Counted from the stretch's first letter, positions 13,218 to 54,060 are shown. The stretch is DNA of 64,000 nt from Candidatus Enterousia sp. (GCA_045648925.1 JAZROY010000001.1:8841-72840); one strand, 5' to 3'. Numbers and translations are program-made. The notes: generated by a model from the letters alone, not told the origin.

Positions 13218-13246
13218 AAAAACCGCCCAAAAGGCGGTTTCTTTTA
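13215..13246. terminator. bidirectional terminator (accgcc-caaaa-ggcggt) between leuS (+) and rpiB (-)
   Basis: The hairpin is flanked by A-runs and T-runs. Confidence 0.7.
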
Positions 13247-13693
13247 AGATATTTTTTTCAATCTGCGAATGCGTCTTTCAACATTATCAAATGGACTTTC
13301 CAGAAAACTTTGTGCGCATAAAAACGCAACTTCGATATCTATGTCATCTGCTGCCAGCGCAAGAACATTTGTATCATCGTGAAAACGATCATCGCGTGCT
13401 TGTTCTGGTCTTTCGCACCGCGATGCCCGAATGTGTCTGTATCGATTCGCAGCAATTTCCATCCCTGCCCCAGTGCCACAAATTAAAATGCCACGCGATT
13501 GTTCGTCGTCCAGCATTTCATCAGCCAATTTTTTAGCGATATCAGGAAAATCAACAGGTGTTTTTACATCGTCTGTACCAAGATTTACGACATTATACCC
13601 CGCCGCCATCAACATTTCGTAAAGATATAACTTTAATCCCACCCCGCGATGGTCGGCGGCAATATAAACATGAGAAATATCTGATTTATTCAT
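13244..13693 (-). CDS. rpiB: ribose-5-phosphate isomerase B (RpiB/LacAB family)
   Basis: It carries the ILICGTGAGMEIAANR block, with AADHRG in place of the GSDHAG consensus. It is 149 aa. Confidence 0.7.
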   Translation of the reverse strand: MNKSDISHVYIAADHRGVGLKLYLYEMLMAAGYNVVNLGTDDVKTPVDFPDIAKKLADEMLDDEQSRGILICGTGAGMEIAANRYRHIRASRCERPEQARDDRFHDDTNVLALAADDIDIEVAFLCAQSFLESPFDNVERRIRRLKKIS

Positions 13694-13695
13694 CT

Positions 13696-14040
13696 TTATT
13701 TGTCCTTTTTCTTTTCCAGTTTACATTCCAATCCTGTGTTTCCAGTGATGTTTAATGTTTTGTAGAACAGAGTGCCAGACATTTTAGCATTTGAAAACAC
13801 ATTTACAGTATTTATATTGGCATTGCCTTTTAAAGATCCATGTAAAAATAATGTTCGCGCAGTTATATCGCCAATAACATGTCCACCACGACCAATAATG
13901 ATTGTTTCGGCATCAATGTTGCCGTTTATTGTTCCGTGAATTTGAACCGTGTGGTCTGTTTCAATGTTCCCCTTAATCAGGCAACCTGCCCCTACGACCG
14001 TGGGAGATTTTTTTTCATCTGCGTTTGTGAATGCTAGCAT
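13696..14040 (-). CDS. bactofilin (DUF583 polymer-forming cytoskeletal protein)
   Basis: The 114-aa protein has repeating beta-helical windings (GNIETDHTVQIHGTINGNIDAETIIIGRGGHVIGDITARTLFLHGSLKGNANINTVNVF). Confidence 0.75.
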   Translation of the reverse strand: MLAFTNADEKKSPTVVGAGCLIKGNIETDHTVQIHGTINGNIDAETIIIGRGGHVIGDITARTLFLHGSLKGNANINTVNVFSNAKMSGTLFYKTLNITGNTGLECKLEKKKDK

Positions 14041-14056
14041 ATTCTCTTCCTTTCTT

Positions 14057-15334
14057 TTAATCTTTTACGAAATTTGCCGGATTAAACGGTGTCCCTTTGT
14101 ATCTTATTTCATAGTGTAGATGTGGCCCCGTTGAACGACCAGATGAACCACCAAGACCAACAACTGTTCCTGGACGCACCCAATCCCCGCGCGAAACCAT
14201 CATTTTGGACAGATGTGCATACAATGTCGTGAATCCCAAACCGTGGTCAATTTCTACGGTTGTACCGTATCCTGTTCTGTCCCCTGCTGAAATTACACGT
14301 CCTGGTGCCACAGCATACAATTCTGTACCAATTTTTCCAGCGAAATCAATTCCTTTGTGCTGTTTAGTAGTTTTTGTAAAAGGATCTTGGCGCGCACCAA
14401 ATGGCGAAGTTATTGTTTTTTGTTCGACCGGTGCGCCAAGTGGCAATATTTTAGTCAACCTTTTTAATCCATGCCATTTTTCGATATCTTGGGCAATTTT
14501 TTGATATTTAGAATCAGCATTTTTTGAAATTTTTACAGGGACATATACCCCACCGATATATTTATTGGAATAATTGTTTGCCTGGGTAATAAGTTGCGCT
14601 TCGCTAAGCCCCAGTTTAGATATGCTGGCATTTATCTTTTTTAATTGTGCATGCAATTCTTCAATGTTTTCAGATGTAAGTTTTGATATGGCATTAATTA
14701 TCTGGTTGTCTGCATTGGATATTTCAATCGCAGATTCCAAGATTTTCTGGTGCTGTTGTTTTAATGTGTCGTTTTCGCTGCGAACCAATTCAAAATCAAG
14801 AACTATTTCAGACATCTTGTCAAATTCAGGTGTGTAATTTTCGTCAGTCATCATTTCAACGATTCGTGTTTGTAAGAAATCTAGTTCACCAATAACCTTT
14901 GACCGGGTATTTAAAAGATCTTCTTTTTCCACATCAGACATTTTTCCGGATTTTAACAATCTGTTGTCTGTAATATTTAAATCACGCGCCAAATCATTGT
15001 ATTTTTTTAAATATGCTTTTAAATCAGCAGTTTGACGATTATGCTGGGCGCGCATTTGTTCCAACTGTTGTGTTCTTTTTTGTAAAAGTGGACGATGATA
15101 TATATAAACATATGTGGACCATGCCGCCCAAATAGTCATTGTTGTAATTAAACAAAACTTGGTGAAACGCCAAAAACTGCTCTGCTGATATGTTGACACG
15201 GTTCCGTCGCGTGTGTCCATAATCGTGCAATCGCGTGGCGGAAACAATCTTTCTATACCACGCCACAACCATCTTAGTGGGGCGGTGATAAATTCCCAAA
15301 GCGATGAAAAATATCTTGTTATAAAGTTTATCAT
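14057..15334 (-). CDS. membrane-anchored coiled-coil M23 (LytM-type) metallo-endopeptidase
   Basis: It has an N-terminal TM segment, a long coiled-coil, and a C-terminal M23 domain (GIDFAG...YAHLS...GSSGRSTGPHLHYEIRYKGTPFNP). It lies directly upstream of the bactofilin gene on the same strand. Confidence 0.85.
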   Translation of the reverse strand: MINFITRYFSSLWEFITAPLRWLWRGIERLFPPRDCTIMDTRDGTVSTYQQSSFWRFTKFCLITTMTIWAAWSTYVYIYHRPLLQKRTQQLEQMRAQHNRQTADLKAYLKKYNDLARDLNITDNRLLKSGKMSDVEKEDLLNTRSKVIGELDFLQTRIVEMMTDENYTPEFDKMSEIVLDFELVRSENDTLKQQHQKILESAIEISNADNQIINAISKLTSENIEELHAQLKKINASISKLGLSEAQLITQANNYSNKYIGGVYVPVKISKNADSKYQKIAQDIEKWHGLKRLTKILPLGAPVEQKTITSPFGARQDPFTKTTKQHKGIDFAGKIGTELYAVAPGRVISAGDRTGYGTTVEIDHGLGFTTLYAHLSKMMVSRGDWVRPGTVVGLGGSSGRSTGPHLHYEIRYKGTPFNPANFVKD

Positions 15335-19049: not shown

Positions 19050-21521
19050 TTAATTCCCAGATGATTTATGTTGTGGCACACCGTATCTTACAATATCTAT
19101 TTCTGATGGTTGTTGTGAATAATTATCTGCACATGTTATGGTGGCGGTGTTGGAATCAGAAACTATGTTCATTGTCGGGCAAATTTGTCCAAAACTGGAA
19201 ATGATAGATTGCTGACACCAATGTTGAGCAGAATCAATCGAACGCGGTTGTTGACACATTTCATCTGTATCAGAATTATCATCTGAACATAATATATCTA
19301 TTGAACATATTGGGTCGTCATCGCCAGATAATGCCGGTAAAAGTGGTCTGCATGTTGCGATTGTGCCGTTTTTACTTCTGTATCCGCCGTTTTCCCAACA
19401 AGAGCAAACACCCCAAGATTGTGTGTCTACGGTTATGCCATAATTTAATGGGCAGATATTTTCTTCGGGGATAAAATGATACCAATACACCAAAGAATCT
19501 GGTGAATTATGAACAGGGTTTATATAAAATATGCTGTCTGGGTTATCGGAATCAATCTTGCAGAAATTATTGGGATTATAGCCAGATTGTTCGGCATATT
19601 TATATTCAACAAAATACCCGCCAAGACCAGCGCAATGATTTGCCAATGTATCCATGATTTTATAATAAATTTCTGTGGCGATGCCTGTTGGTCGTGGTGT
19701 TCTTTGTGCGACATCATAGTCGGCAAAGGTATCAAATCCACCAAATACCTCGGCAATAATATTTTCACATCCAGGGGTATTTGCAACCTGTTGCGCGCAA
19801 GGTGAAATTATGTTTTGGTTTTCATCATAAAGTGTGAACCAATTCATCGCAGTTCCACGTGAAAACAGACCACTTTGCGTATAATAGAAATTACCGTATC
19901 CTGTGCCACCAAAATTGTCAAAACATTGCTTTGCAATTGTGCGACATGCGTTTATTGTGTCTGTTCTGTCTTTGTTTTCAATATAAACGTTGATTATGTC
20001 ATTATTAAACATACCATTACAGGACGAGATATAATCTGAACACATCTCAGATGTCAAAGAAATAGTAGCTGGTTTTAATAACAAAGTGGAATCGCCAGTT
20101 AAATTTGCCATCGCATTTGCAATAGATATTGTTTGTTTGTCATAGCAACCTGCAACCAAATCAAGACAACTTTGTTTAATTGTTTTTACCTTGTCTTGTT
20201 GTGCGTAATATATATCCAAAAGCGCCTTGTCCAGATATTGTTGCCACACAAAATCCGCATTTTCCACGCATTTGTCCAGTGAACTTTCCGCGAATTTTTT
20301 AGTTTTGTTTTCAAAAAATTGAACGAATTGGCGATTTTTTGCGATGGTTGATAATTTTTGGTCTTTTAATTCTTTGTCCGTGTTAAATGTTAACAATTCA
20401 CCCAGTTTATAAAAATCAGAAACCCCTGTTAATGGCGCGCCAGTTGTTACATCTATGAATTGACCATAATCAAGACATTTATGGTAATCAGAACCACAAA
20501 CTTCATCGCTTTGTATCGCAGATTCAACATTTGCAAGGCATGTCGCAATATCGTCAGAGTTATGTTTTTGACGATTTTCAACACGTGCTAAATCAAGCAT
20601 AGCACTGCTTTGATATGTTGCCGCTTTAAGATTTTTTTGCTGTTTTTGTAGTGCCGCTTCGACAGTGTTACAATCTTGTTCTATGGTCATCAGATATGCA
20701 TTGATTGCGCGTTGTAGGGACGCTTTGTTACAATCTTCCTGGACAATGTTTTTACATTTTGGATAAACCGCCTTGTATAAAGTGGTGCCGTTATAAGAAG
20801 CGATAATTTGCGAAGAATCATCAAGACCAAAAGCATAAGACATATCAGGCGAAATAATAATGCTGTTTAAATCTTGGTATTTACCGCTGACATATGCATC
20901 TTCGCCCTTGATAGAATTCATAATTGCCTGTAATAATTGTCTTGATGCAGATTTATCTTTGCTAAGTGCATCTTCGCCCTCAGATGCGGTTTTCATGGCG
21001 GTTGCTTGTTCTTTGGTTAATCCAACGACATCCAAGTTTTCAGAAAATTCAGACAATTGGTCGTTGGCACTTTGATAGGTTTCTGTAATATCTTGAAAAT
21101 CAAAAACCCGGTCACTGCATGAACATCTGCGATAAACATCGCTTTTTAGATAACAAAACTGATCCATACATGTAAAGAAAGCCGTTTTGCATTTTTCGTA
21201 TTCAGTACCTGTGCGTGTTTCGATAACAGAATTCGTGGTTGTTGTTGCACGCGCAGAAACATTGCGTGTTGTTGTCGCAGAGCGCGCTGTCGTGTTTCTT
21301 GTTGCTGTTTTTGATGAAGAATTCGTTGGCATTAAAATTGATACAGGCTTAGTCGAACGCGCAGATACAGTAGTCTTTAATGGGGTTCTGGACGTGATAG
21401 TGCGGGTCGCGCGCGCAGTTGAAGTTTTTGTCCGAGATACAGCGTTTTCGCCACGTGTGGCACCTTCTGCGCAGGTTAAGCAGAAAAGACAAGCATAAAC
21501 AAAAGTAAAAAATTTCTTCAT
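19050..21521 (-). CDS. large cysteine-rich secreted protein with an N-terminal Thr/Ser/Arg-rich low-complexity (mucin-like) tract, unknown family
   Basis: The start was set at MKKFFTFVYACLFCLTCAEG, a signal peptide with a GAGAG RBS upstream. The product is about 823 aa with more than 50 Cys. The N-terminal tract is a degenerate TRT/ATT repeat that is also visible at the DNA level. I recognise no known domain. Confidence 0.6.
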   Translation of the reverse strand: MKKFFTFVYACLFCLTCAEGATRGENAVSRTKTSTARATRTITSRTPLKTTVSARSTKPVSILMPTNSSSKTATRNTTARSATTTRNVSARATTTTNSVIETRTGTEYEKCKTAFFTCMDQFCYLKSDVYRRCSCSDRVFDFQDITETYQSANDQLSEFSENLDVVGLTKEQATAMKTASEGEDALSKDKSASRQLLQAIMNSIKGEDAYVSGKYQDLNSIIISPDMSYAFGLDDSSQIIASYNGTTLYKAVYPKCKNIVQEDCNKASLQRAINAYLMTIEQDCNTVEAALQKQQKNLKAATYQSSAMLDLARVENRQKHNSDDIATCLANVESAIQSDEVCGSDYHKCLDYGQFIDVTTGAPLTGVSDFYKLGELLTFNTDKELKDQKLSTIAKNRQFVQFFENKTKKFAESSLDKCVENADFVWQQYLDKALLDIYYAQQDKVKTIKQSCLDLVAGCYDKQTISIANAMANLTGDSTLLLKPATISLTSEMCSDYISSCNGMFNNDIINVYIENKDRTDTINACRTIAKQCFDNFGGTGYGNFYYTQSGLFSRGTAMNWFTLYDENQNIISPCAQQVANTPGCENIIAEVFGGFDTFADYDVAQRTPRPTGIATEIYYKIMDTLANHCAGLGGYFVEYKYAEQSGYNPNNFCKIDSDNPDSIFYINPVHNSPDSLVYWYHFIPEENICPLNYGITVDTQSWGVCSCWENGGYRSKNGTIATCRPLLPALSGDDDPICSIDILCSDDNSDTDEMCQQPRSIDSAQHWCQQSIISSFGQICPTMNIVSDSNTATITCADNYSQQPSEIDIVRYGVPQHKSSGN

Positions 21522-22436: not shown

Positions 22437-23018
22437 ATGATACAATCTGCGAGAAAAAGTGCGGAGATTTTAGATATGACAAAAAAATTTGAACAGAAAA
22501 TATTTTTAACTGATAAAGAAGTAGTGACAAAAGAATATACTATAAGTGAATTAAAAGAATTGCTTGCCCCCACAGTTATGATTAATTTGTATTACGCGAC
22601 ACAGAATCCAAAATATTGGATGTGGCAAAGAACAGACAAGAAGTTAACCGGAGAAAAATGGCGCAAATGTCAAACGGAGGAACTATACAAAGGATATGAA
22701 GCAAGTAATTTTGGTCGTATACGGAAAAATGGAAAAATATTGCCCCAATATGAAAAATGTTATGAAGGTAAAACAGCACAAGATATAAAAAAAGTCATAG
22801 AAGATAATCCTGGGATTAAAAATATAGGATATTTGCAGGTAAACAGTCATGATGTACATAGATTAGTTGCTGATGCGTGGTTGGTAAAAACTGGTGAAGG
22901 TTACGATGTCCATCATATATCAAATGACGGATATGATAACTGTCCATATAATTTAATATACTTACCAAAAGAAGCGCATAGAAAATCTTACGAAGGCAGT
23001 GTACACAATGGGAAATAG
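22437..23018 (+). CDS. free-standing HNH homing-endonuclease-like protein with a NUMOD4-like N-terminal motif
   Basis: It contains W-R-K-C...YEASNFGRIRKNG, resembling the NUMOD4 'YEVSNxGRVRS' motif. The HNH core reads GYDVHHISNDGYDNCPYNLIYLPKEAH. A possible alternative start lies at 22476. Confidence 0.65.
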   Translation: MIQSARKSAEILDMTKKFEQKIFLTDKEVVTKEYTISELKELLAPTVMINLYYATQNPKYWMWQRTDKKLTGEKWRKCQTEELYKGYEASNFGRIRKNGKILPQYEKCYEGKTAQDIKKVIEDNPGIKNIGYLQVNSHDVHRLVADAWLVKTGEGYDVHHISNDGYDNCPYNLIYLPKEAHRKSYEGSVHNGK

Positions 23019-23101: not shown

Positions 23102-23419
23102 TTACCTTAACCCCTTTTTCTTGCAACAGGCACTTGCGGCAGATTTCCAATCTGCATATGTTCCGGATGTGTCGCGCAAATCACGCCATGGTTGCCATGA
23201 ATCGCATTTTGTTTTTTTATCTTTGCCTGTGCATTTTACATATCGGCGAAGCGAACATGTTTCATCAGAAAGTTTACCTGTATCGGTAGTACATTTGACA
23301 ATTACATTTTGATTTTTGGCATCGTCTTTACCAAATTCCTTGGTCGTTATAACCTTGTACGAGAACGCGTTGCCAACAATCGCAAATGTGGATATTAAAA
23401 CAAATAATATTTTTTTCAT
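23102..23419 (-). CDS. small secreted cysteine-containing protein (105 aa), unknown
   Basis: It has a Sec signal peptide (MKKILFVLISTFAIVGNAFS) and a Lys-rich mature part with 8 Cys. It is the last gene of a co-directional cluster. Confidence 0.5.
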   Translation of the reverse strand: MKKILFVLISTFAIVGNAFSYKVITTKEFGKDDAKNQNVIVKCTTDTGKLSDETCSLRRYVKCTGKDKKTKCDSWQPWRDLRDTSGTYADWKSAASACCKKKGLR

Positions 23420-23479
23420 GTATAATCCTTTCCATTTACAAAAGTATTATAAATATTTTATAAAACAAATACAACAAAA

Positions 23480-25399
23480 TTAGTTCGCAGATGTCCAAGG
23501 TATATCGTTCATAAACAAATAAAACAATTCCCCCTTGGTTTCATCAGGATTAGTTTCATCAAGCCGAATTATTGGACGAACAACATAAATATCTACATTG
23601 CAATTTTGTCCGTGTTCGTCTTGATATTCGTTTAAAATATAATTAAATTTTTCTGCAAAATCCATTGCTTGTAAATAAGCGGCATCATCATCAGCGGCAT
23701 CTGTAGAATTACCTTCCCACATAAGCCACATACCATAATTAACTTCGTTTTCTTGACCGTTCAGGTCATCGGCAGATAACAAACAAAGTGGTTTAAATTC
23801 GATTCCGTTAGAATATTGTTGTGATGTATTGGATGTTCTGTCGTATAAATCACCAAGAAAAACCACGGCACCATAAAGTCCGCCAAGGTCGCGTTCGAAT
23901 CGTGCAAAACGCGCCCCATGTTTTAATGTAGAATCAATTAACCAATCGCCTATTTTGGCAGAACGCGAAGACATTCCGGCGCGCGCAACATTTGCTGCTT
24001 TGGTCATCGTTTTTGCACCACCCTGTGCGGCTTTTAATGTTTTGCCAGCTGTACCGATTTTTTTAAGGTTTCTTGTGACAATGTTTCCCGTTTGCGGTCG
24101 TTTAAAAGCGCGCAGATTTCGGCGATATTTCATCACATCAGAAAAAGATTCGGCGGTTTTTTTATACTGTTTGACAGAATCGTTCCCTTTTTCAAGTTCT
24201 TTGATTTCGTCTTCTAGTTTTTTTGTTTCTTGTCCCAAAGTTTTTTGCAAATCTTTTATTTTATCAGGATTTTTCAATGCCTCTTCTGTCACAGTTGGGT
24301 CAATTTTTTTTGCTGCATCCAATGTTTTATTTATTTCTTTTTCATATTTTGTTGTGTCTTTCCCTGTCTTTCTGGCTTTTTCCAGTTTTTTTACATTTTT
24401 TTCATATTTACCGAGTTTGGCAATATCGTCAGTTTTGGTTGTGATTTGTCGGGCAATTTGGATGTAATTTTGAACATCATCTAGTTTTGTTAATGCTTTT
24501 AATGAATTTTTTAAATTTTTTGCGGTTCTTGTTGCTCTTGCACCTTTTAATCCAATCATGGCGGCTTCGCCAGTGCCGACTGTGACAATAGTCAATGCAA
24601 CTTCTGCGGCAATTTCTGCATACATAATCCATTCCAAATTTACATCGCCAGCAACATAATAATCGTTGGTGTCTTTTTCTAAATCTACCAGTTCACGAAC
24701 AACCTGGTTTATAGTATAATGGTCGTTTGCCAGTGCAGATTTACTGGTACAGAATGCCCCACGCGGATAAATGTCATCAATGTTATCATTTATCCATTTC
24801 ATTGAAAGTGTATTGTTTTTATCTTGACCAACAAAGTTTGATAATGAATTATGTTCAACAACCATAATCGCATACCAAGCGGGGTCAGTGTTTATATACT
24901 TTGCCGGGTCATTTGTATCCATCAATCGTGGATTCGGATCGCCGTTTGGTAAACTTGGTTTGCCCGCCAATAATAATTTTTGATCCAACACTTTTAATTG
25001 TGTTGTATAATTTATAGTAATTTCCCGACCGTTTGGAAATTGAAAATAAATCGGTGTAAAAGTTACGGTTTGTAACCTGTCTGTAATTTTTTTAAGTTCT
25101 GGACAATCAAGCGCCTCTTGTAAAACATCTTTGTCAAACATAACAGTTTGCGCCCATGCGCGAACCTCAATCTCTGGGGTTTCGTCTTCGTCTATGTCGT
25201 CCATTTCATCGTAAAGCGCTTCTGTAAAAACCTGTGTAGCACAAGGTGTCAGATTTTCAGATTCTGGATGCGCCATCGCCAAAATTTCTTCGGCAGTAAG
25301 CATAATATCCGTATCTTGCGCAAACAAAGGCATCGTGAACAAAAACGCGAAAAACAAAAATATTTTTTTCACGATGTATTCCTTTGTTGAATTAATCAT
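23480..25399 (-). CDS. secreted protein with a central Lys/Glu-rich coiled-coil region (639 aa), unknown family
   Basis: It has a signal peptide (KKIFLFFAFLFTMPLFAQD) and a long charged, predicted helical segment. Its start overlaps the upstream gene's stop by 8 nt. Confidence 0.6.
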   Translation of the reverse strand: MINSTKEYIVKKIFLFFAFLFTMPLFAQDTDIMLTAEEILAMAHPESENLTPCATQVFTEALYDEMDDIDEDETPEIEVRAWAQTVMFDKDVLQEALDCPELKKITDRLQTVTFTPIYFQFPNGREITINYTTQLKVLDQKLLLAGKPSLPNGDPNPRLMDTNDPAKYINTDPAWYAIMVVEHNSLSNFVGQDKNNTLSMKWINDNIDDIYPRGAFCTSKSALANDHYTINQVVRELVDLEKDTNDYYVAGDVNLEWIMYAEIAAEVALTIVTVGTGEAAMIGLKGARATRTAKNLKNSLKALTKLDDVQNYIQIARQITTKTDDIAKLGKYEKNVKKLEKARKTGKDTTKYEKEINKTLDAAKKIDPTVTEEALKNPDKIKDLQKTLGQETKKLEDEIKELEKGNDSVKQYKKTAESFSDVMKYRRNLRAFKRPQTGNIVTRNLKKIGTAGKTLKAAQGGAKTMTKAANVARAGMSSRSAKIGDWLIDSTLKHGARFARFERDLGGLYGAVVFLGDLYDRTSNTSQQYSNGIEFKPLCLLSADDLNGQENEVNYGMWLMWEGNSTDAADDDAAYLQAMDFAEKFNYILNEYQDEHGQNCNVDIYVVRPIIRLDETNPDETKGELFYLFMNDIPWTSAN

Positions 25400-26636
25400 C
25401 TAGGACAATCGTTCCGTAATCAGCAGAAAAACCGTTAGAATCAATATGTCCTATTTCCATGATATAATCCCGACCATGCCAATCACATTTTCCCTTGTCT
25501 GCGACTTCATTTTGAATTTTTTCTTTTATTGTTTCGTATTCTTCAATTGTCATCTGTAATGGTGTTCCGCCAGTAGTTGATTTTACCAATAAACCTTCTT
25601 GGTTTTTATCTGCACAATATTTTGAGCCATCTCTGAATTTTGAAAACACTTTGGTATTAAGGTCATCGTCTAGTGGGTTTGTACCACATATTGCGTAGCA
25701 TCCACGACCAGAGTTTCCGGTTTTTCCAGTGCGATTTGAAGACGATGCGCGTTTGTGTATGCGCGCGTAGAGCATGTTTGGGTCACTGTCTTCTGGATTT
25801 TGTTGTTCTTGATCTTTGTTAACTTCACCTGGGGTCGTTTCATTTTGTTTTAAAGTTTGTTGTGTGCTTTTTTTGCATCCTTTGCTGTTTGGATGTTCTT
25901 CGCACCATTCTGATTCGCTTTTGACTTCCAATGTTTTATATGCGATCGCATCTTTGTACGGTTCAAGACCGGCGCGGTCGTTTTCCATACGCTCTGAAAA
26001 AGACAAATCGGCGTAGGTCGCCGGAAAATCTGTCTTGGTTAAATGTTCACTGCCCACACCGTTTTGCGATTGTAATCGTTGTAATTCGTCGCTTCGCTCT
26101 TTCTGCTCGATCTGCCATTTTGTGGGTTGTTGTTTATACGGATTTTCAAATTGTATTCCGCCCGAATCATCAATGTTTGTATTTGGGGTCGTTGCGCCTG
26201 GAAAAGCAACCGCCCGATTCGGTAAAGAATTGCCGTATTGTTTTTGATATGTTTCAAAAATGCCGTCAATGTATCCAGAACAAGCAGACACATAATTCGC
26301 CCCCGGCAGATTAGAAAGTTGAACCATTATCGTCGGCCGTATGTCCGAAATATCTGTGTTTTTACAATTGTCGCGCGCCATACATTGAACAGATACCAAT
26401 GATTGAACAACCCGGATACAATCGTCAGCGTTAAGGTCCGCGCCGGTCGCATACACAGGTTGTGGTAATCGCTGATTATACGGTGCGGTTGGTGACCAAA
26501 ATGGATTGGATGAATAATGTTGAACATTTTGAATTTGGCCGTAATCAGAAAACAGCGACACCGCCGCCGGCGCAGAAAACGCACAAAAACCGCAGATAAA
26601 AACGAACAACAAAGATTTAAAAAAGTCCTTTATCAT
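25392..26636 (-). CDS. secreted protein (414 aa), unknown family
   Basis: It has a signal peptide (LLFVFICGFCAFSAPAAVS). It lies 18 nt downstream of the prepilin peptidase gene on the same strand. Confidence 0.55.
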   Translation of the reverse strand: MIKDFFKSLLFVFICGFCAFSAPAAVSLFSDYGQIQNVQHYSSNPFWSPTAPYNQRLPQPVYATGADLNADDCIRVVQSLVSVQCMARDNCKNTDISDIRPTIMVQLSNLPGANYVSACSGYIDGIFETYQKQYGNSLPNRAVAFPGATTPNTNIDDSGGIQFENPYKQQPTKWQIEQKERSDELQRLQSQNGVGSEHLTKTDFPATYADLSFSERMENDRAGLEPYKDAIAYKTLEVKSESEWCEEHPNSKGCKKSTQQTLKQNETTPGEVNKDQEQQNPEDSDPNMLYARIHKRASSSNRTGKTGNSGRGCYAICGTNPLDDDLNTKVFSKFRDGSKYCADKNQEGLLVKSTTGGTPLQMTIEEYETIKEKIQNEVADKGKCDWHGRDYIMEIGHIDSNGFSADYGTIVLDD

Positions 26637-26654
26637 CCTTTCCTTATTCCATTA

Positions 26655-27116
26655 TTATATCAAAAATTGGATTGCAATCAAAGCCAAAAATCCACCAATT
26701 AAAAAGAACGGTGCAAAAGGAATATATTTTTCCCGTTTTTTCCAATTCCAAATATATACCAATACACATGTGATAATCATGGCAATAGATAGACCCTGGG
26801 TCCCAAGCCAGATTCCACCTGCCCCCAGTAATTTGATGTCCCCCATGCCGATTGGTGGGTATTCTGCGTTTTTCTTAAGGCGGTCAAATATAAACCCAAC
26901 GATAAGTCCCAGACAGTATCCCATTGCGCCACCGATAACCGAATCAGCGCTTGTCACCGGCCATGGGAAAAATGTCGTAGTCAGCAATCCTGCAAAAAGA
27001 AATGGAAACAAATAGACATCTGGTATGATGTGTCGCCGGAAATCTGCGGTTGCCATGCGCCAAGCGCAAAATAATGCGCCAATTAAAACCAATGAAAAAA
27101 ATATATAATAAATCAT
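26655..27116 (-). CDS. A24-family prepilin peptidase (CpaA/TadV-like, Flp pilus type)
   Basis: Both catalytic Asp motifs are present: ADFRRHIIPD and GMGDIKLLGAGG (GxGDxKL). It is polytopic and about 154 aa from MIYYIFF; the ORF is open to 27155. Confidence 0.75.
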   Translation of the reverse strand: MIYYIFFSLVLIGALFCAWRMATADFRRHIIPDVYLFPFLFAGLLTTTFFPWPVTSADSVIGGAMGYCLGLIVGFIFDRLKKNAEYPPIGMGDIKLLGAGGIWLGTQGLSIAMIITCVLVYIWNWKKREKYIPFAPFFLIGGFLALIAIQFLI

Positions 27117-27189
27117 GTTTTCTCTCTTGCCTTTCGATTCGTTTTTATGATACAATTATATCAGATATAAAAACAAGGGATTTTTTATT

Positions 27190-27759
27190 ATGAGTAAAGG
27201 TTGGGACAGCGGTATGCTGAAAAAATTAAAAGCCCTGGTCGGTAAGGGGTTGTCTACCTCTGAAATGGGCAAGAAACTTGGCATGTCCAAAAATGCTGTC
27301 GTTGGTAAATTGAATCGTTTGGGCTGGAATGCAAAGGCCAGTGATACTGCATCCAAAAAATCTAGCAAGACAAAAAAAGAAACAAAAACGGTCGCAAAAA
27401 AGCCGGCTAAGGTCACATCGGTAAAGAAAGTTGTCGATAAAAAAACAAAAACAACTGTCAAAAAAGCCAAAGAAACAAAAACAGTTCAAACAAAAACAAA
27501 AGCAACTGTTGATACAAAGGCAAAGCCGGTAATTAAAACTGCGTCGAAAAAAACAAAAAAAGATTTGGCTTTGCATGAATTGTTGATTCAGCATGCTTTG
27601 CAGATGGCGGGTTTAAAACCGAATCAGTGCCGTTGGCCGATTGGTGACCCCGATTCGGAAAATTTTCATTTTTGTGGTGAACAGGTCTTTACGGGCAAAC
27701 CGTATTGTTATGAACACTGTCGTCAGGCGTACCAGTTAACACCACCAAAGAAAAAATAA
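27190..27759 (+). CDS. gcrA: cell-cycle transcriptional regulator GcrA
   Basis: The N-terminus is W-x-x-x-LKKLKAL...GLSTSEMGKKLGMSKNAVVGKLNRLG. The C-terminus is CRWPIGDPDSENFHFCG...KPYCYEHCRQAYQ. Both are hallmark GcrA blocks, flanking a Lys-rich linker. Confidence 0.9.
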   Translation: MSKGWDSGMLKKLKALVGKGLSTSEMGKKLGMSKNAVVGKLNRLGWNAKASDTASKKSSKTKKETKTVAKKPAKVTSVKKVVDKKTKTTVKKAKETKTVQTKTKATVDTKAKPVIKTASKKTKKDLALHELLIQHALQMAGLKPNQCRWPIGDPDSENFHFCGEQVFTGKPYCYEHCRQAYQLTPPKKK

Positions 27760-27780: not shown

Positions 27781-29970
27781 ATGATTGGCGAGAGAGAAAA
27801 TTTTGATTCACAAACACAATATGGTTCGCTGGTTATGCGCCCCTATGATATAGAAGGTAACGAAATCAGCGCTTTTTACGATTCGTCTGATAAATTGGTT
27901 TTTGTTTTGGATAATACAATCAGTTCTCGTAAACCTAATATTTTATTGGTAATTAATCCTGATGCAGATAAAAAGTGGGATGAAATATTGTCCGGCGATT
28001 ATGGTATTGATTTGGAAACGATTCGCCCAAAGCAAGATAATAAATATCAAAAATTTGATATCGAATATTCCGGGTTGGGTGTATACGATTCGCTGATAAA
28101 GGCATATGATGCAGGCGATTCGTTGGAAGAATCTTTAAACCAGTTGATGATTTTGCGTGATTCTGCGGCGCGACATAGTGCGATGACGCGTTTGAATATG
28201 GCAAATGAAGTAATCGCAAAAACAAACGCGACAATTGTAAAAACCAAGGAATCTATTGTCAGATTACAGGCGCGTCTTAAAACTTTGCGGGCTAAATTAG
28301 CAGAATCCAAGAAAGGCATTGGTCGTGAACCAACAAAACAATCTGCGTCCAAGATTTTAAAATTGGAATCTCAAATAGAAGCCACAAATGAAAAATTAAA
28401 ACGCGCAAATGAAAGATTAAAATCTGCCCAAAAGCGTTTAGAAACAGCAACTGTGGATGCCGAATTGGCAAGCCAATTATTAAACCAACCGGCTGGGGAA
28501 GTAAAACAAGTTGCTAAAAAACAAGTGATTCCAACAGTTGTTCCTGTTAAACAAAAATCTGTAACAAAGAAAAAACAGGCAGAACCAGAATACGATGAAT
28601 ATGAAGAAGAATACCAAGAAGATGTTGATATGAAAAATGATGCAAACAATGTTGTCAAACAAGAAGAAATTGAAGAAAAAACAGAACAAATAGAAGAAGA
28701 TTATAGCGATGAAGAAACTGAAAAAGTTGAACCTTTGTTTGATGAAGATCCACAAATATTGAATAACGATATCGCGTTTAAACCCATCAGTTTTGAACCA
28801 CCGGCTGTTCCTGAAATATCTAAATCTGACAATGTTCCGGTTGTAAATCAAGATGTGGTTGTGACAGAAGAAACAACAGAAACATTTACCCAAGAAGAAA
28901 AGGAAGATAATAATACAGATTACAAAACAAACCAAGACCAACAATCTGTGTTGGAATCTATGAAACCTATTCCTTTTGATGAAGATTTAAAACCTGTTCC
29001 TGTTGTTGATTTGTCTGAACCAGAAGAAATTGTCAAAGAAGAAATTATAGAAGAAAAACCAGAAACAAAAACAGAAGAAACAGATAAAAAAGAACCTTTG
29101 GAATTAGAAGTTGTCAAAGAAGATGTGCGGCAATATGAACCAGAAGTTGTTGAACGACCAACAGATACGGAAGAAAAAAATATATATGATGAATATCCGG
29201 TTGTGCCACCTGTCGCACCTGTTGCACCAGTGATACCACAAAGCCCTTCGAATATAAGTGTTGTTGATGATGTGGAACCAAAGCGGTCAAAATTCTTTTA
29301 TTATTTACTGTTGATTCTTTTGATTGTGTTGGCTGTGTTCACATTATGGTTATATCAAAAAAATGTGAAACCGTCGGTTCCTGTGTTGGCGGCATCTGTT
29401 GAAAAAACAGAATTACCAAAAGAACAAAATACTGTGTTTAAAAAAGGTAGTGGTTCGTCAAAGACAAGTAAAAATATCAAAGCGCCTGCGGTCAAAGAAG
29501 TAAAAAGAGGAATTGATATTGCTACCCCTTCTTTCCTGGATGAAGAACCTGTTGTTGAACCAATGCCAGAGCCAATAATAGAAGAAAAACCTACTGTCAA
29601 AGAAACAGTAGAAATTGTTGAACCTGTTGATGTCGCGCCACAGGTTATGGATGCTGTCCCTGCGCGCGTAACAACATCTGGTCAGCCCCAAGAAGATGAA
29701 AAAACTGGTTTGTCCGAAGAAGAGATTTTGGCCAATAAACCTGAATATCAACCAGGATCAAAATATGACGAAATGTTTGTTGCTGATGAAGGTGGCGAAA
29801 TAGTAAGTCCAATTAATGTTGAATATGTTGAAGATGATATTGTTTATATGCCACAAGAGCAAGAGATGCCAGAATATGTCGAAGAAAATGTCCAAATCCA
29901 AGACCCGTATTTTGACGAAGAAGAAGCGGCATACCAAGCTGAACAGGCAGGATTATATTATGAAGAATAA
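27781..29970 (+). CDS. large acidic bitopic membrane protein (cytoplasmic coiled-coil, central TM, Pro/Glu-rich C-terminal region), unknown function
   Basis: The 729-aa protein has heptad-like K/E/R-rich helices at residues about 150-250, a single TM segment (FFYYLLLILLIVLAVFTLWLY), and a PVAPVAP motif. It is very rich in Glu and Asp. Confidence 0.55.
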   Translation: MIGERENFDSQTQYGSLVMRPYDIEGNEISAFYDSSDKLVFVLDNTISSRKPNILLVINPDADKKWDEILSGDYGIDLETIRPKQDNKYQKFDIEYSGLGVYDSLIKAYDAGDSLEESLNQLMILRDSAARHSAMTRLNMANEVIAKTNATIVKTKESIVRLQARLKTLRAKLAESKKGIGREPTKQSASKILKLESQIEATNEKLKRANERLKSAQKRLETATVDAELASQLLNQPAGEVKQVAKKQVIPTVVPVKQKSVTKKKQAEPEYDEYEEEYQEDVDMKNDANNVVKQEEIEEKTEQIEEDYSDEETEKVEPLFDEDPQILNNDIAFKPISFEPPAVPEISKSDNVPVVNQDVVVTEETTETFTQEEKEDNNTDYKTNQDQQSVLESMKPIPFDEDLKPVPVVDLSEPEEIVKEEIIEEKPETKTEETDKKEPLELEVVKEDVRQYEPEVVERPTDTEEKNIYDEYPVVPPVAPVAPVIPQSPSNISVVDDVEPKRSKFFYYLLLILLIVLAVFTLWLYQKNVKPSVPVLAASVEKTELPKEQNTVFKKGSGSSKTSKNIKAPAVKEVKRGIDIATPSFLDEEPVVEPMPEPIIEEKPTVKETVEIVEPVDVAPQVMDAVPARVTTSGQPQEDEKTGLSEEEILANKPEYQPGSKYDEMFVADEGGEIVSPINVEYVEDDIVYMPQEQEMPEYVEENVQIQDPYFDEEEAAYQAEQAGLYYEE

Positions 29971-49228: not shown

Positions 49229-52200
49229 ATGGCTGTTTTTCGGGCTTTTTATCGTGGTTTTGGACGCATGTTATTTGTGTCGGTTTTGTGCTTTGCGTGT
49301 GGTTTTCTATCTGCTCGGGCGGAAGAATATACAATTGTATACCTTAATCAACACGGTGATGAGATTAGTGATTTAACACCGGATAGATATACAGAAGAAG
49401 AATTGCCGTTGGCAAAAGAAAACTTGCCGAATAGCGAAGCGGTAAGCATAGCAACAGGTTGCGAATTGGCAGACGAACTATGGTATTGGGATGATAAGAT
49501 GTCAGAACCTGTGGACCAAATAGAATCTGTCTCAGACGAAGGGACAACTTTGTACGGGAATTTGGATTGTGGTGAAAACCGAATCGTGGCTTTGAATTCA
49601 GCAGGTAAAGAAGGAATTGGTTCTGGTGGAACGAGGATACTCTATTATTATCGTAATTTGGGTGAATCTGGTGAATTCTTTTATAATGAGTATAACGGTA
49701 GTAAATCTGCGTCTGGTGTGGCGTCATCCATAGTGTTGCCGACATATGATGATGAAAGTTATACTTTCTTAGGGTATTATGCAGACCCAGACGATATGGA
49801 AACACAATGTATTAATGAACGGGGATACATAACAGAATACGGTATCCAGCAAATGGCAGAAGGTGGCGAAGGTGAAACATCATGGGATGCAGTGTATGAT
49901 CCCAAAATAATCCCTAAGAACATTATACAGTTACTACCAAATTATGGTTCTTCTTTTACTAGTCCAGGGACAGGTTATATATATGGAGTCCCGTCGACGT
50001 ATGGTGGCGGGATATACGATGCATATTCTGGGGGTAACCAAATATCGTCAATAACTATTCCAACATGGGGTGGACATAGTTTCTTAGGGTATTATTCTTC
50101 TAGTAGTGCGAATTCGACTCAATATATAGATTCCGTTGGTAATATTACGGCCGCAGGTATAGCAAAAGCGCAAGAAAATCCTGGGGGCTCGAATCAAACT
50201 TGGTATGGTCACTGGTCAGGAACATATAGTTTGCACTATGACTGTTCGACTAATTATAATGTTGTAGGTCAACAAGGGAACGGTACCGCACCGGCGGACG
50301 AACCTCATTCTGCTGGGCAACCTGTCACATTGCAACAAAATCAAGGGTGTTATCCTACGGATTCATATTATTCTTTTGGTGGTTGGAATTGTTTTAATCG
50401 GGTAGAAGTGATTCAAGCTGGTGGTTATTCTATAACGACTGATTACAGCAATGGCCCAATAAATAACGGATATAATTTGACAATGCCTTATAATGATGTG
50501 TGGTGTGAACCAATTTGGATACCTTCTAATGTGACGTTATCATATAATTGCGGATGGTTGCCAAATACTAACACGCCCGTTTCTGGACCTGCGCCGTCAT
50601 TGGTTTATGGTTCGGCGCCGTTGGGAGGAAATTTGGCATCAGCCGCCGCGGCACAGAATACTTGTATAATAGATACCAATACTTACAGTTTTGTTGGGTG
50701 GTATTGTCCGGGGGGGGCTTGGATATCGGAACCAGGCGGTGTATTCAGCATTACGGAAGATGCAACTTGTTATGCCGTGTGGGCAGAAAACAATCCGTGT
50801 GCCCCTGGGAGCGAGGCCAGCAACAGTCCAGAAATTTTGGGTGGCACAATTAGTGATTGGAATCAGATACAACAACTTTTTGTTTCATTAAATGATTTGT
50901 CTGGAATGTGTAGTGAAACTGTTGGTAGTTATCCCGGACAGATTGGAACACCTTCTTCCACATCTGGCGATTATTGTTGGTGTCAAGCAACTTCTTATAA
51001 TTCAACACCATTAAATAATTATCCATGGGTGTTTGTTCAGTATTACAATGGTTGTAACGTAGCAAATTGTCAATCTTGGTGTTTGTCCTCGATTAACCAA
51101 AAAGATCCTGATTATTTCTTTAATGTTTCTTTGTTAAGTAATCCGATATGTGAATATACATTGGATTATGATTGTGGAACTGTCGGTGGTACTGCTCCGT
51201 CATCTGTTTCAGGAATAATTCCAACAAATATCACACAAAACAGTCCGATGTCATTGGCGTCTACTGCGCCAAGTTGTAACAACGGCAACAACACTTTATC
51301 TGGTTGGACATGTTATGCTAGTTCAGATACAGGGCAAACAACACCTTTGACAAGTGCATCATATTCCTTAGATACCATGCCTTATGATAATGTAACTTGT
51401 TATGCGAATTGGGTTCCGCCCCAGGGATATACTGTGACGTATAATTGTGATAATGGTAATGCACAACAGAGTAGCATGCTTGGTGGAACTTATAACTATG
51501 GGGCTACTGTGACATTGTGGACACAAAATGGTAATTCTGTTGGTTCGTGTGATGTTCCGAGTAATAGAGTGTTTGTTGGCTGGAACTGCTATTTTGATAA
51601 TCCTGATGCTTATTCTCCACAAGCTACATATGATACTACTGGTTATTATCAGACGGTTCTTTATTTATCTGATTATACAGAATCTGGCACGAGCATATCT
51701 GTAGATAATGTGATTTGTACGGCGCAATGGGCTTGTGATACAACGAATGGTTATACGTGGGATAATCTAACGCAAAGTTGTGTTAATGAGTACAAAATTT
51801 ATTATAATCCTGGTCAACATGGAAATTATGGAACTGGCAGTTGGGGTTCCAATGGTTTTGGACCAGGGGCAAGCAATGGTGGTGGAACATTTGGTCAGTA
51901 TTGGTCAACGCAACTTTTGTCGGCAACGACCATAGTGCCGGATGATTCTTGTTATGAATTTTGTGGTTGGAGCACGGTATGGAATGACACTTGTGGTAGT
52001 GCGAATATTTTGACTGCTGGGGCACAACAACCAAACGTATGGGATCTTACAACTTATTTGAATCTGTATGCGGTTTGGCAATGTGCGAGCGGTTGTGTAG
52101 CAAGTGGTGATGCTTGTGTTTCTGCGCCGGCAACCTATATTGTCACCTATCATGGTGGAACTTGTTTGCCAAGTGCCTCAGATTATCAAAGTGATCCGAT

Positions 52201-52960
52201 AAATGCAGGCGACAGTTATATCGTGGAAAATCCGAATTGTACATATGCGAATTCACATTATTTTATACCAACCGATAACTGTTATGAATTTGTTGGGTGG
52301 AGCGAAGATAACCCTGCCACGCAAAATCCAACGATAGATTATAACAATTGTGATAATTGTACCACCCAAACGGGCAGTTGTGGAACAATCTTCAACGTAT
52401 CGTCTAACATAGACCTTTATGCGATATGTGATGTTATGGCGCACAATGTGATATATCATGATTGCGATAATACATATACTTATACTGATTCAAATGCTGT
52501 TTGGATTGGGCAAAGTTCGGATTATACACCGTTATCGCCATCTGTGGCGCCGTTAAGTTCGTCAGATTTGAAAATAGACCCATTATCCAGTTTCCAGGGC
52601 TGGGCAACATCAGAAACTGCTGGTGATGGTAAATCGTGGTGTGGATTAGAGTCGGGTGATTTATACCCGGAATTGTATGGTGGAAACGGTAAAGAAACTA
52701 AGTACAATTATTCTGTGAGCGCCGATAAATTGTGTCATGATATCGATTTGTATGCGGTGTGTTGTCCGTTGAATTTAAGTTGGATTTTAAACGGTGGACA
52801 ATGGCCAACAGACCCAAATAATCAAACAACTTTGCAAAACCAGACATCGTGTGAATATGGGGCGACTGCAGGACAATCTGGTTCGATTACACCATTGCAG
52901 ACCCCATTAAAGCCAGGATACACATTTAATGGATGGCTGGTAACAGGTTATACACCTTAA
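49229..52960 (+). CDS. giant secreted cysteine-containing repeat protein (1243 aa), Listeria-Bacteroides (Flg_new/InlB B-repeat-like) repeat family
   Basis: An N-terminal signal region is present. There are about 12 modules of 75-95 aa with the pattern Y-x-[VL]-x-Y-[DN]-C..G.....C....[FY].GW.C......(M/T)P...V.C[YT]A.W or LYAV(W/C). A C-terminal GYTFNGW motif is present. The protein is very rich in G, S, T, N and Y. Confidence 0.75.
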   Translation: MAVFRAFYRGFGRMLFVSVLCFACGFLSARAEEYTIVYLNQHGDEISDLTPDRYTEEELPLAKENLPNSEAVSIATGCELADELWYWDDKMSEPVDQIESVSDEGTTLYGNLDCGENRIVALNSAGKEGIGSGGTRILYYYRNLGESGEFFYNEYNGSKSASGVASSIVLPTYDDESYTFLGYYADPDDMETQCINERGYITEYGIQQMAEGGEGETSWDAVYDPKIIPKNIIQLLPNYGSSFTSPGTGYIYGVPSTYGGGIYDAYSGGNQISSITIPTWGGHSFLGYYSSSSANSTQYIDSVGNITAAGIAKAQENPGGSNQTWYGHWSGTYSLHYDCSTNYNVVGQQGNGTAPADEPHSAGQPVTLQQNQGCYPTDSYYSFGGWNCFNRVEVIQAGGYSITTDYSNGPINNGYNLTMPYNDVWCEPIWIPSNVTLSYNCGWLPNTNTPVSGPAPSLVYGSAPLGGNLASAAAAQNTCIIDTNTYSFVGWYCPGGAWISEPGGVFSITEDATCYAVWAENNPCAPGSEASNSPEILGGTISDWNQIQQLFVSLNDLSGMCSETVGSYPGQIGTPSSTSGDYCWCQATSYNSTPLNNYPWVFVQYYNGCNVANCQSWCLSSINQKDPDYFFNVSLLSNPICEYTLDYDCGTVGGTAPSSVSGIIPTNITQNSPMSLASTAPSCNNGNNTLSGWTCYASSDTGQTTPLTSASYSLDTMPYDNVTCYANWVPPQGYTVTYNCDNGNAQQSSMLGGTYNYGATVTLWTQNGNSVGSCDVPSNRVFVGWNCYFDNPDAYSPQATYDTTGYYQTVLYLSDYTESGTSISVDNVICTAQWACDTTNGYTWDNLTQSCVNEYKIYYNPGQHGNYGTGSWGSNGFGPGASNGGGTFGQYWSTQLLSATTIVPDDSCYEFCGWSTVWNDTCGSANILTAGAQQPNVWDLTTYLNLYAVWQCASGCVASGDACVSAPATYIVTYHGGTCLPSASDYQSDPINAGDSYIVENPNCTYANSHYFIPTDNCYEFVGWSEDNPATQNPTIDYNNCDNCTTQTGSCGTIFNVSSNIDLYAICDVMAHNVIYHDCDNTYTYTDSNAVWIGQSSDYTPLSPSVAPLSSSDLKIDPLSSFQGWATSETAGDGKSWCGLESGDLYPELYGGNGKETKYNYSVSADKLCHDIDLYAVCCPLNLSWILNGGQWPTDPNNQTTLQNQTSCEYGATAGQSGSITPLQTPLKPGYTFNGWLVTGYTP

Positions 52961-53007
52961 AACAGGTCGAAAACGAGATTAAAAAATAATAAAAAAGGAC
53001 GGGAAAG

Positions 53008-53985
53008 ATGAAAAACAAAATATTTTTAACCAGCATGTTCGCAGTGATGCTCGCCTTCCCTGCGTATGCAAGTTATTTTGCAGATCCGACAGGTCAATCC
53101 ACTAATTATTCTGGACAAATTGCTGCGGGCAGCACACAAGAAGATTGTGATTCTGACCCTTTGCAGTATCAGGTCCCACAAGGGCAAGGTGAAAGTTACG
53201 GAACATATACCCTTACCGCACAATGGACACCAAATCAATATACTGTAACTTATGATTGTAATGGTGGGACAGTTAATTCGTCTTTGGTTGATAGTGTTGA
53301 TTCCAATGGATACGGTATCGATAATGTCATCTATAATACAACGTCATATACGTTTCAACATCAATTGGATTTGTGTACCTATGCCAACCAAACACCTAGT
53401 GAGTTTACGTGTACTCACAATGCGGATGGTACACCTTGGTTTGTTGCGCAAACATGGGATATTCCTGATGATGTAACTTGTACAGCGCATTGGAGTGAGA
53501 CACCATATACGATAACTTATGATTGCGGTTCGTTGCCAAATAATGGTGGGGTTGTAAATGGCGGAACATTTGAAAATAGTACCAATAATGTTGATACAGT
53601 TTATAATGGACAGAATTATTCAGTAAAATCTGATGCTTCAGGTTGTGGAACAGGTAATCAATTGGCAGGATATCATTTTGCTGGGTGGTCTTGTACACCA
53701 AATCTTGCAACAGGTTCTGGGTCACAAATATATTCTGTTGATTGGCCAACATCAACTGTTGTTTCTCAGACAATAGCATCTCTTGGAATTTCTGCCGACG
53801 CTACCTGTGATGCTTTGTGGCAAGAAAACGGTGTGAATTTAAGATATTTGGAAAATGCTGGTGATGTCACACCATATCATACTGATTCTTGCCAATATGG
53901 TAATGATACATTCACTTTACCAGCAGAACCATCCAAAACAGGTTATACATTTACTGGTTGGAAGGTGACAGATTGGGACGAATAA
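53008..53985 (+). CDS. secreted repeat protein (325 aa) of the same Cys-containing Listeria-Bacteroides-like repeat family
   Basis: It has a signal peptide (MKNKIFLTSMFAVMLAFPAYA) and the repeats YTVTYDCNGG ... CTAHW and YTITYDCGSLPNNGG ... CDALW. It ends GYTFTGWKVTDWDE. Confidence 0.75.
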   Translation: MKNKIFLTSMFAVMLAFPAYASYFADPTGQSTNYSGQIAAGSTQEDCDSDPLQYQVPQGQGESYGTYTLTAQWTPNQYTVTYDCNGGTVNSSLVDSVDSNGYGIDNVIYNTTSYTFQHQLDLCTYANQTPSEFTCTHNADGTPWFVAQTWDIPDDVTCTAHWSETPYTITYDCGSLPNNGGVVNGGTFENSTNNVDTVYNGQNYSVKSDASGCGTGNQLAGYHFAGWSCTPNLATGSGSQIYSVDWPTSTVVSQTIASLGISADATCDALWQENGVNLRYLENAGDVTPYHTDSCQYGNDTFTLPAEPSKTGYTFTGWKVTDWDE

Positions 53986-54060
53986 TAATGAAGCAATTAA
54001 GTTAAAAAAAGGACTTGTGTTAAAAAAATAAAAAGTGCTAAGGTAATATAGGAAAGGGAA

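Follow-up and report, generated by a model that had tools for sequence, protein, structure and literature searches.

Organization of the locus

The DNA considered here is a stretch of 64,000 nucleotides from Candidatus Enterousia sp. (GCA_045648925.1, JAZROY010000001.1:8841-72840), hereafter called the window, and the system in question is a group of four genes that begins with an A24 aspartyl peptidase of the prepilin-processing type. As judged from the sequence, the operon is conserved and opens with the gene of an intact A24 peptidase, followed by genes for Sec-exported orphan proteins; it is located in the core genome beside the cell-cycle gene gcrA. No pilus gene accompanies the peptidase at the locus, and the cluster is built on orphan secreted families that appear to be specific to Rs-D84, the order to which Enterousia belongs.

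Four co-directional open reading frames (ORFs) on the minus strand, encoding in this order the peptidase, p414, p630 and p105, were found where an earlier examination of the same DNA, hereafter the sequence-only reading, had placed them (Table 1). The spacings of 18, -8 and 60 nt that it had given were reproduced for the ORFs as originally called, but the middle value probably has to be changed. Indeed, the 639-aa ORF most likely begins at the GTG codon at 25372 and would then encode 630 aa. This start is favoured because an AAGGAA ribosome-binding site located 7 nt upstream, the signal peptide MKKIFLFFAFLFTMPLFA, cleaved before QD, and the N-termini of homologues all agree with it. With this start, the 8-nt overlap between p414 and p630 becomes a gap of +19 nt. 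Each of the four genes is preceded by its own Shine-Dalgarno sequence, and no terminator-like hairpin was found within the intergenic gaps of the operon in the window.

Table 1. Coordinates of the operon, of its control region and of neighbouring genes in the window.
Feature	Position	Strand	Remarks
A24 aspartyl (prepilin-type) peptidase, short form, 153 aa	26655-27116	-	First operon gene; PF01478, E=1e-13
p414, Sec-exported, 414 aa	25392-26636	-	N-terminal module and C-terminal domain
p630, Sec-exported	23480-25372	-	Probable start GTG 25372; longer 639-aa ORF is 23480-25399
p105, small secreted protein, 6 Cys, 105 aa	23102-23419	-	Third orphan secreted gene
Divergent control region, 73 nt	27117-27189	.	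Between the start codons of the A24 gene and gcrA
gcrA, cell-cycle sigma-70 cofactor	27190-27759	+	PF07750, E=4e-30; constant divergent neighbour of the A24 gene
p729, acidic single-pass membrane protein	27781-29970	+	Always adjoins gcrA
p871, large secreted protein, 35 Cys	19050-21518	-	ORF extends to 21665; probable start 21518

The A24 peptidase

PF01478 (Peptidase_A24) is the sole domain of the peptidase. It is matched with a score of 52 bits, against a cut-off of 26.5, and positions 5-102 of the 104 positions of the profile are covered. This corresponds to the short-form CpaA/TadV architecture, devoid of the N-terminal methyltransferase/zinc-binding part. No NCBIfam model matches the protein, and its assignment to the CpaA/TadV subtype is based on this domain architecture. 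Outgroup A24 homologues, the nearest of which come from metagenome-assembled genomes (MAGs) named 'Rickettsiales bacterium', carry an additional N-terminal membrane extension of 75-100 aa. Both catalytic aspartate motifs of CpaA/TadV, already recognized in the sequence-only reading, are present: D33 lies in RHIIPD and D95 in PIGMGDIKL, which conforms to the GxGD(x)KL motif. The two residues are invariant in 73 orthologues, in 20 clade representatives and in the outgroups, and the peptidase is predicted to be catalytically intact.

The median identity of the A24 orthologues to the window protein (52%) is near that of the housekeeping proteins LpxB (58%) and GcrA (60%), which argues that the peptidase is under ordinary purifying selection; the corresponding values are 61% for p105, 48% for p414 and 44% for p630. 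A search of 1.84 billion cluster representatives returned 11 matches below E=1e-30 and 51 below E=1e-10. By this measure, the A24 protein of the window belongs to a small and divergent clade.

The exported proteins

The products encoded downstream of the peptidase had been described as secreted by a Sec-type rather than a class III signal, and as devoid of recognizable domains. Signal alignments and domain scans bear out this description. In p414, p630 and p105, as well as in p871, the h-regions vary, the cleavage sites end in A-x-A and the mature N-termini are polar and conserved. All four signals are predicted to be of the Sec/signal peptidase I type and not of class III. Cryptic class III signals were looked for in p414, p630 and p105, and none was credible, the signal peptides being variable and the mature N-termini conserved. 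An internal motif of p630 (G242-x4-E-W), which precedes a hydrophobic helix in a pilin-like manner, was also rejected, since its +5 position varies (E/Q/S/G/R/K/A/H). Because p414, p630 and p105 lack class III signals, the peptidase cannot process them as prepilins. Pfam, NCBIfam and PHROG gave no match for the 414-, 639- and 105-aa products.

The p414 protein has a conserved N-terminal module (approximately residues 25-266) with four invariant cysteines, and a C-terminus that is variable across relatives. Its C-terminal domain (approximately 285-414) is confidently modelled, with a predicted local distance difference test score (pLDDT) of about 90, the value for the whole AlphaFold2 (AF2) model being 67. 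In relatives, the N-module, or its 193-247 segment, is fused to a GH108 lysozyme domain with PG_binding_3, to M23, to CPL1-like cysteine-rich modules or to p630-like bodies. Related loci, numbered with the prefix L, were each read over ±10 kb around the match; paralogues in which the N-module or its 193-247 segment is joined to GH108 and PG_binding_3 or to M23 are located at 11578-13272 in L038, 12308-13414 in L067 and 12775-14268 in L090. The GH108 and M23 fusions are candidate secreted cell-wall hydrolases, and they point to cell-wall or cell-contact functions for the family. With its Sec signal, shared N-terminus and variable C-termini, the p414 family resembles modular cell-wall hydrolases and polymorphic effectors. 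It differs from these in that no immunity gene was identified, that Pfam, PDB profile and Foldseek searches linked the N-module to no trafficking or anchoring domain so far described, and that the p414 of the window itself carries no recognizable enzymatic domain.

In p630, an N-domain is followed by a conserved acidic-hydrophobic helix (approximately 244-275), a lysine-rich helical stalk of variable length and a C-domain. The AF2 model (pLDDT 65) is mostly a helical coiled coil. The family comprises 542 homologues at E <= 0.001 (at most 8000 candidates scored), with lengths of 582-852 aa and many invariant residues in the alignment, and all source names among the 120 listed are those of an 'Alphaproteobacteria bacterium' MAG. 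In many relatives, a paralogous gene carrying the p630 helix motif, the 'middle' gene, stands beside p630. Profile-profile comparison of p414 with p630 revealed no relation; BLAST connects their C-domains indirectly, via the 'middle' genes. As for p105, it has about 85 mature residues with six cysteines, all invariant, and a mean column identity of 76% over 31 species. Among the three orphan secreted proteins of the operon, it shows the highest conservation, and its gene follows p630 in 82 loci. Finally, p871, with its 35 cysteines and a Thr/Ser/Arg-rich N-terminal stretch, contains no domain that could be found. In 43 related loci, its gene is flanked by the tRNA cluster and lpxB, and several lineages lack it; in the window, it is parted from p105 by four tRNA genes and an HNH insertion.

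Structure prediction and profile searches of the 414- and 639-aa proteins yielded no significant fold or family match. Foldseek searches of the p630 and p414 AF2 models against PDB and BFVD gave no significant match, PDB profile searches of p630, p414 and p105 returned coiled-coil noise or nothing, and p105 matched neither Pfam nor PDB entries. The top Foldseek match of p414 is saposin A (E=0.7), and alpha-pore-forming toxins recur in the p630 list. As all of these matches have E>0.1, they are to be taken as leads only. The p630 protein would share with the bi- and tripartite alpha-helical pore-forming toxins (ClyA, XaxAB, PaxAB, Smh, Ahl) a long helical stalk, one conserved hydrophobic helix and, in many relatives, a paralogous 'middle' neighbour; however, its Foldseek matches all have E>0.3 and a template modelling score (TM) below 0.25, which is not significant.

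At this point, the possibility may be considered that the downstream genes are extremely diverged cpaB, cpaC and cpaD, the locus being a degenerate Tad locus. The succession of a peptidase and of secreted proteins of about 290 aa, 600 aa and small size is loosely like the order cpaA-cpaB-cpaC-cpaD. However, no Secretin, SAF/RcpC or other Pfam signal was detected in these proteins, the mostly helical coiled-coil model of p630 is unlike a secretin, and the locus contains no ATPase, platform or pilin gene. The cpaB/cpaC/cpaD identity was rejected on the grounds of the missing secretin/SAF signal and of the helical p630 model, and a degenerate Tad locus appears very improbable.

Conservation of the cluster

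When species-representative genomes were scanned, 80 loci were obtained; they come from MAGs of the rumen and of horse, chicken and human guts, and many bear the title Candidatus Enterousia. The comparison of synteny, which the sequence-only reading had advocated, shows that one order recurs in about 70 species-level Enterousia genomes: acpS, p729 and gcrA, then divergently A24, the p414 family, in some cases the middle gene, p630, p105, tRNAs, p871 and lpxB. Over 73 loci, a median distance of 23 nt separates the A24 stop codon from the start that follows, and in 71 of them the distance is comprised between 7 and 44 nt. One of the relatives having the same cluster, L101, is a metagenome contig of 935,024 bp (ERZ1026780 NODE_1) that is probably a nearly complete genome.

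Context look-ups and a metagenome scan extended the comparison to more distant lineages. The arrangement in which p729-gcrA faces A24 is kept in termite and rumen lineages with G+C contents of 0.30-0.57. In most of the distant lineages (G+C 0.33-0.55), genes of the p414, p630 and p105 types occur within a few kb of A24, in varying orientation. Thus, in L130 and L138, A24, p414 and p630 are co-directional and p105 is inverted, and in L117/118 the entire p630-p105 unit is inverted. In L090, a convergent p414N-p630 fusion is followed by a p414N-M23 peptidase, and in L085 a convergent p630 homologue (33% identity, E=1e-104) lies about 3 kb off. Neither the p414 nor the p630 family is found near A24 in L091 and L145. 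The flanks also shift between lineages, acpS being displaced and lpxB switching sides. In addition, a trio of genes encoding RpiB, a bactofilin and an M23 peptidase is located at 13244-15334 (-) in the window and directly downstream of the A24 gene in L091; its different placing indicates that the region has been reshuffled among lineages. The operon-like coupling claimed in the sequence-only reading is therefore upheld by the short gap found over 73 loci and fails in several outgroups, where the secreted-protein genes are convergent with A24. That the cluster survives rearrangement argues for a functional or regulatory tie, and not for obligatory co-transcription.

Another explanation would be incidental adjacency. 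In such a model, the peptidase gene would be historically tied to gcrA, unrelated lineage-specific envelope genes located downstream would be read through, and the slow rearrangement of reduced genomes would keep them together with no function in common. The pairing of gcrA with A24 is indeed older and more constant than that of A24 with p414, the housekeeping genes acpS and lpxB are likewise syntenic across Enterousia, and L091 and L145 have an A24 gene with neither a p414 nor a p630 neighbour. Moreover, a promoter-like site with an extended -10 element (26681-26654) is present at the 3' end of the A24 gene, just upstream of p414; in the promoter scan, such sites were overall no commoner than in shuffled sequence. 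On the other hand, p414, p630 and p105 stay within a few kb of A24 over the range of G+C contents given above despite inversions and changed flanks, and the gap between A24 and the next gene is narrowly constrained in 71 of the 73 loci. Considering these observations, incidental adjacency is a serious alternative, though on balance an unlikely one.

The gcrA side of the cluster

The position of gcrA facing A24 is the oldest and most deeply conserved linkage of the peptidase. The intergenic region that separates the two genes is strongly conserved across about 70 species. It contains a GANTC site of the form CGAWTCG in 70 of 70 loci, as compared with a background of 2.7 per kb. In the window, this site (CGAATCG, 27135-27141) is located in the spacer of a promoter-like sequence of gcrA, TTGCCT-18-TACAAT (27127-27156, +), which has an extended -10. 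In the outgroup L085, the motif stays beside gcrA and the A24 start is 217 nt further on, which argues that the GANTC site is primarily a gcrA promoter element overlapping the A24 leader. The CGAWTCG sequence would be a CcrM-type site, so that gcrA, and perhaps the A24 operon as well, may be controlled by methylation or by GcrA.

On the other side of gcrA, p729 encodes an acidic, coiled-coil protein that matches no known family. Its membrane helix, YYxLLxxLIxLSxFTLWxYQ, is nearly invariant, even in outgroups where the overall identity is about 38%. The helix is preceded by basic residues and by a small residue, and there is no conserved Gly at -1, the junction being KRSKF|FYY in the window.

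These features of p729 lead to another view, in which the peptidase would have been re-purposed in cells devoid of pilins. It would either cut a non-canonical membrane substrate encoded in the cluster, for which p729 is a candidate, or clear signal-peptide remnants in the manner of the GxGD proteases of the presenilin/SPP type. All the gcrA-linked lineages examined have kept the p729-gcrA-A24 triad, the almost invariant p729 helix has a prepilin-like N-in topology, and the small and divergent A24 clade, with its 51 representatives out of 1.84 billion, may be mentioned in the same sense. No pili are reported for Rs-D84 in PMC12306168. However, the missing Gly at -1 does not fit a prepilin-type cleavage site in p729. 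A further objection comes from the length of the segment that would be removed, about 500 aa: no A24 enzyme is known to use a substrate with such a leader, and the idea is speculative. A re-purposed enzyme of this kind seems quite improbable. The broader proposition that Rs-D84 truly lacks pilins and pilus or type II secretion system (T2SS) machinery, the A24 peptidase having a non-pilin role within its own cluster, is scarcely less improbable. In that case, cleavage of the prepilin-topology protein p729 beside gcrA might amount to cell-cycle-coupled juxtamembrane proteolysis. Alternatively, A24 might be needed to build a new Sec-dependent contact or feeding apparatus composed of p414-type wall-hydrolase carriers, p630 and p105.

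Core genome or genomic island

The sequence-only reading had also suggested that the block might be island cargo, lying next to an att-like scar with its HNH gene. The HNH gene and the repeat are real. An HNH/NUMOD4 endonuclease gene (22437-23018, +) comes right after the p105 stop codon; it matches PHROG HNH families with E values down to 5e-13 and looks, from its sequence, like a free-standing homing endonuclease. It corresponds to a strain-specific insertion of about 690 bp: neither L005, a relative whose p630 orthologue shows 94% identity, nor any of the 84 related loci contains it. The scar is a 54-nt direct repeat (22166-22219/22339-22392, 89% identical, 173 nt apart) made of the tRNA-Val 3' end and a G+C hairpin with a T-run. 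Because this repeat is also found in L005, which has no HNH gene, it predates the HNH insertion, and only the HNH gene is variable. The cluster of four tRNA genes occupies the same spot in every relative checked. Within it, a second direct repeat, of 49 nt (21861-21909/22018-22066, 88% identical), corresponds to the spacers after tRNA-Ala and tRNA-Leu(taa).

Integration of the block at the tRNA cluster as the cargo of a genomic island could be imagined from the duplicated tRNA-Val 3' end and from the HNH gene adjoining the block. However, the position of the block is shared by about 70 species and by outgroups, and its G+C content (0.36-0.43 over 23-27 kb) is the same as in the remaining window. 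No integrase is present, and searches of plasmids and phages with p630 and p414 gave no relatives, the HNH gene being the only thing found in the PHROG, plasmid and phage searches. Finally, L005 carries the repeat without the HNH gene, only about 690 bp having been inserted. The conserved place, the typical G+C content and the lack of plasmid or phage relatives refute the island claim, which retains hardly any probability. The block is, by all these sequence comparisons, a vertically inherited part of the core genome in which only the HNH gene varies.

Search for pilus and secretion genes

Pfam scans of the window covered, with few exceptions, the long ORFs (at least 100 aa) that are free of overlap with a longer gene. 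Combined with a class III motif scan, they revealed no pilin, Flp, tad, pil or gsp gene in the 64 kb. What the Pfam scans did find were housekeeping genes, together with a small number of orphans and two repeat proteins of giant size. Consecutive ORFs of 1243, 325 and 2493 aa occupy 49229-52960, 53008-53985 and 54061-61542 (+), the last two with Listeria-Bacteroides repeat (Flg_new) domains. These large repeat ORFs (49229-61542) probably encode giant surface adhesins, which would fit a cell-contact lifestyle. No credible pilin ORF came out of class III/Flp motif scans of the window and of about 170 loci, all candidates being artefacts, either out of frame or antisense. Thus, the earlier statement that no Flp pilin, pseudopilin or tad/cpa assembly gene is nearby holds for the window and for about 170 related loci.

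These results set the locus apart from the systems that resemble it most. Like CpaA of Caulobacter and TadV of Aggregatibacter, the peptidase consists of the A24 domain alone (about 150 aa), with two catalytic aspartates and no N-methyltransferase, and its host is an alphaproteobacterium, as is Caulobacter. Unlike them, it is encoded at a locus without Flp pilin, TadA/CpaF ATPase, TadB/C platform, secretin or pseudopilin; its neighbours are gcrA and orphan Sec-exported proteins, it has no NCBIfam match and it belongs to a divergent clade. A second comparison may be made with PulO/GspO of type II secretion, whose genes stand with or close to those of exoproteins (pulA with pulC-O in Klebsiella). 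Here also, the gene of a prepilin peptidase accompanies those of exported proteins that depend on Sec, bear disulfides and are not cut by the peptidase itself, and some family members are hydrolases (the GH108 and M23 fusions). In contrast, no gsp core gene is seen at the locus, the methyltransferase domain typical of GspO/PilD is missing, and export of p414, p630 and p105 past the outer membrane is only putative.

A tentative model

The reading that we put forward, with a confidence somewhat short of even, is that the cluster is a co-expressed, vertically inherited module of the envelope or of partner contact, whose peptidase matures pilin-like proteins encoded elsewhere. In this model, the four genes would be co-expressed, with a timing possibly set by the GcrA/CcrM cell-cycle circuit. 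The secreted proteins would work in the periplasm or at the cell surface, where they would target the cell wall or take part in contact with partner cells. With a hydrophobic helix and a long stalk, p630 may play a structural part or act on membranes. As to the peptidase, its substrates would be pilin-like proteins of the Flp or pseudopilin type whose genes lie in another part of the genome. Once matured, they would form a filament resembling those of Tad or T2SS systems, which would serve for attachment or else for exporting or positioning the co-expressed proteins, in a relation that may be likened to that of GspO with T2SS exoproteins or of CpaA with Tad pili. In Caulobacter, CpaA cuts the 14-aa leader of PilA, whose pool in the membrane acts as a signal for the initiation of the cell cycle (PMC7196804). 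The CpaA/PilA pair is thus a precedent for pilin processing tied to the cell cycle, which applies here by analogy only.

Several observations weigh against this model. No significant fold match was obtained, so that the roles proposed for p414, p630 and p105 derive solely from domain fusions. The secreted-protein genes are convergent with A24 or absent in L085, L087, L090, L091 and L117, which argues that co-transcription is typical of the clade, and neither essential nor order-wide. No promoter was detected on the A24 strand in the promoter scan. Regarding the machinery, Pfam scans of the long ORFs of the window revealed no T2SSE ATPase, platform protein or secretin, and a Walker-box regular expression for secretion ATPases gave 0 matches over 1.56 Mb of related loci. 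Over about 1.5 Mb of such loci, neither a pilin nor an ATPase, platform or secretin gene came to light. The same expression, applied to 87 outgroup and metagenome loci, retrieved an ATPase only beside the distant A24 genes of L169 and L170, which served as a positive control. Genes for an Flp prepilin (G/XXXXEY) or for TadE/F pseudopilins were not found next to the peptidase in the window and in about 170 loci. Finally, type IV pili are mentioned in PMC12306168 only for a lineage other than Rs-D84, which hints that Rs-D84 may be pilus-free.

Concluding remarks

In the Enterousia cluster, the gene of an intact prepilin-type protease is found together with that of a cell-cycle regulator and with genes for orphan secreted proteins, relatives of which are fused to domains of cell-wall hydrolases. 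Its interest depends on what the remaining part of the genome encodes. If a Tad or T2SS locus exists elsewhere, the peptidase gene would be an orphaned cpaA placed ahead of lineage-specific envelope genes, a useful but unsurprising annotation. If it is true that the genomes are devoid of pilins, the cluster would provide one of the few examples of an A24 protease that works on something other than pilins.

The guts of ruminants, horses, chickens and humans widely harbour Enterousia and other Rs-D84 bacteria, whose genomes measure less than 1 Mb and encode neither respiration nor the usual nutrient transporters. Enterousia genomes are small (0.75-1.0 Mb) and lack the tricarboxylic acid cycle, respiration, flagella and standard transporters (PMC12306168). 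A dependence on partner cells is suspected (PMC12306168; PMC13196213). As Rs-D84 bacteria are believed to live at the expense of partner cells, a cluster kept order-wide would be a concrete candidate for their contact or feeding machinery.

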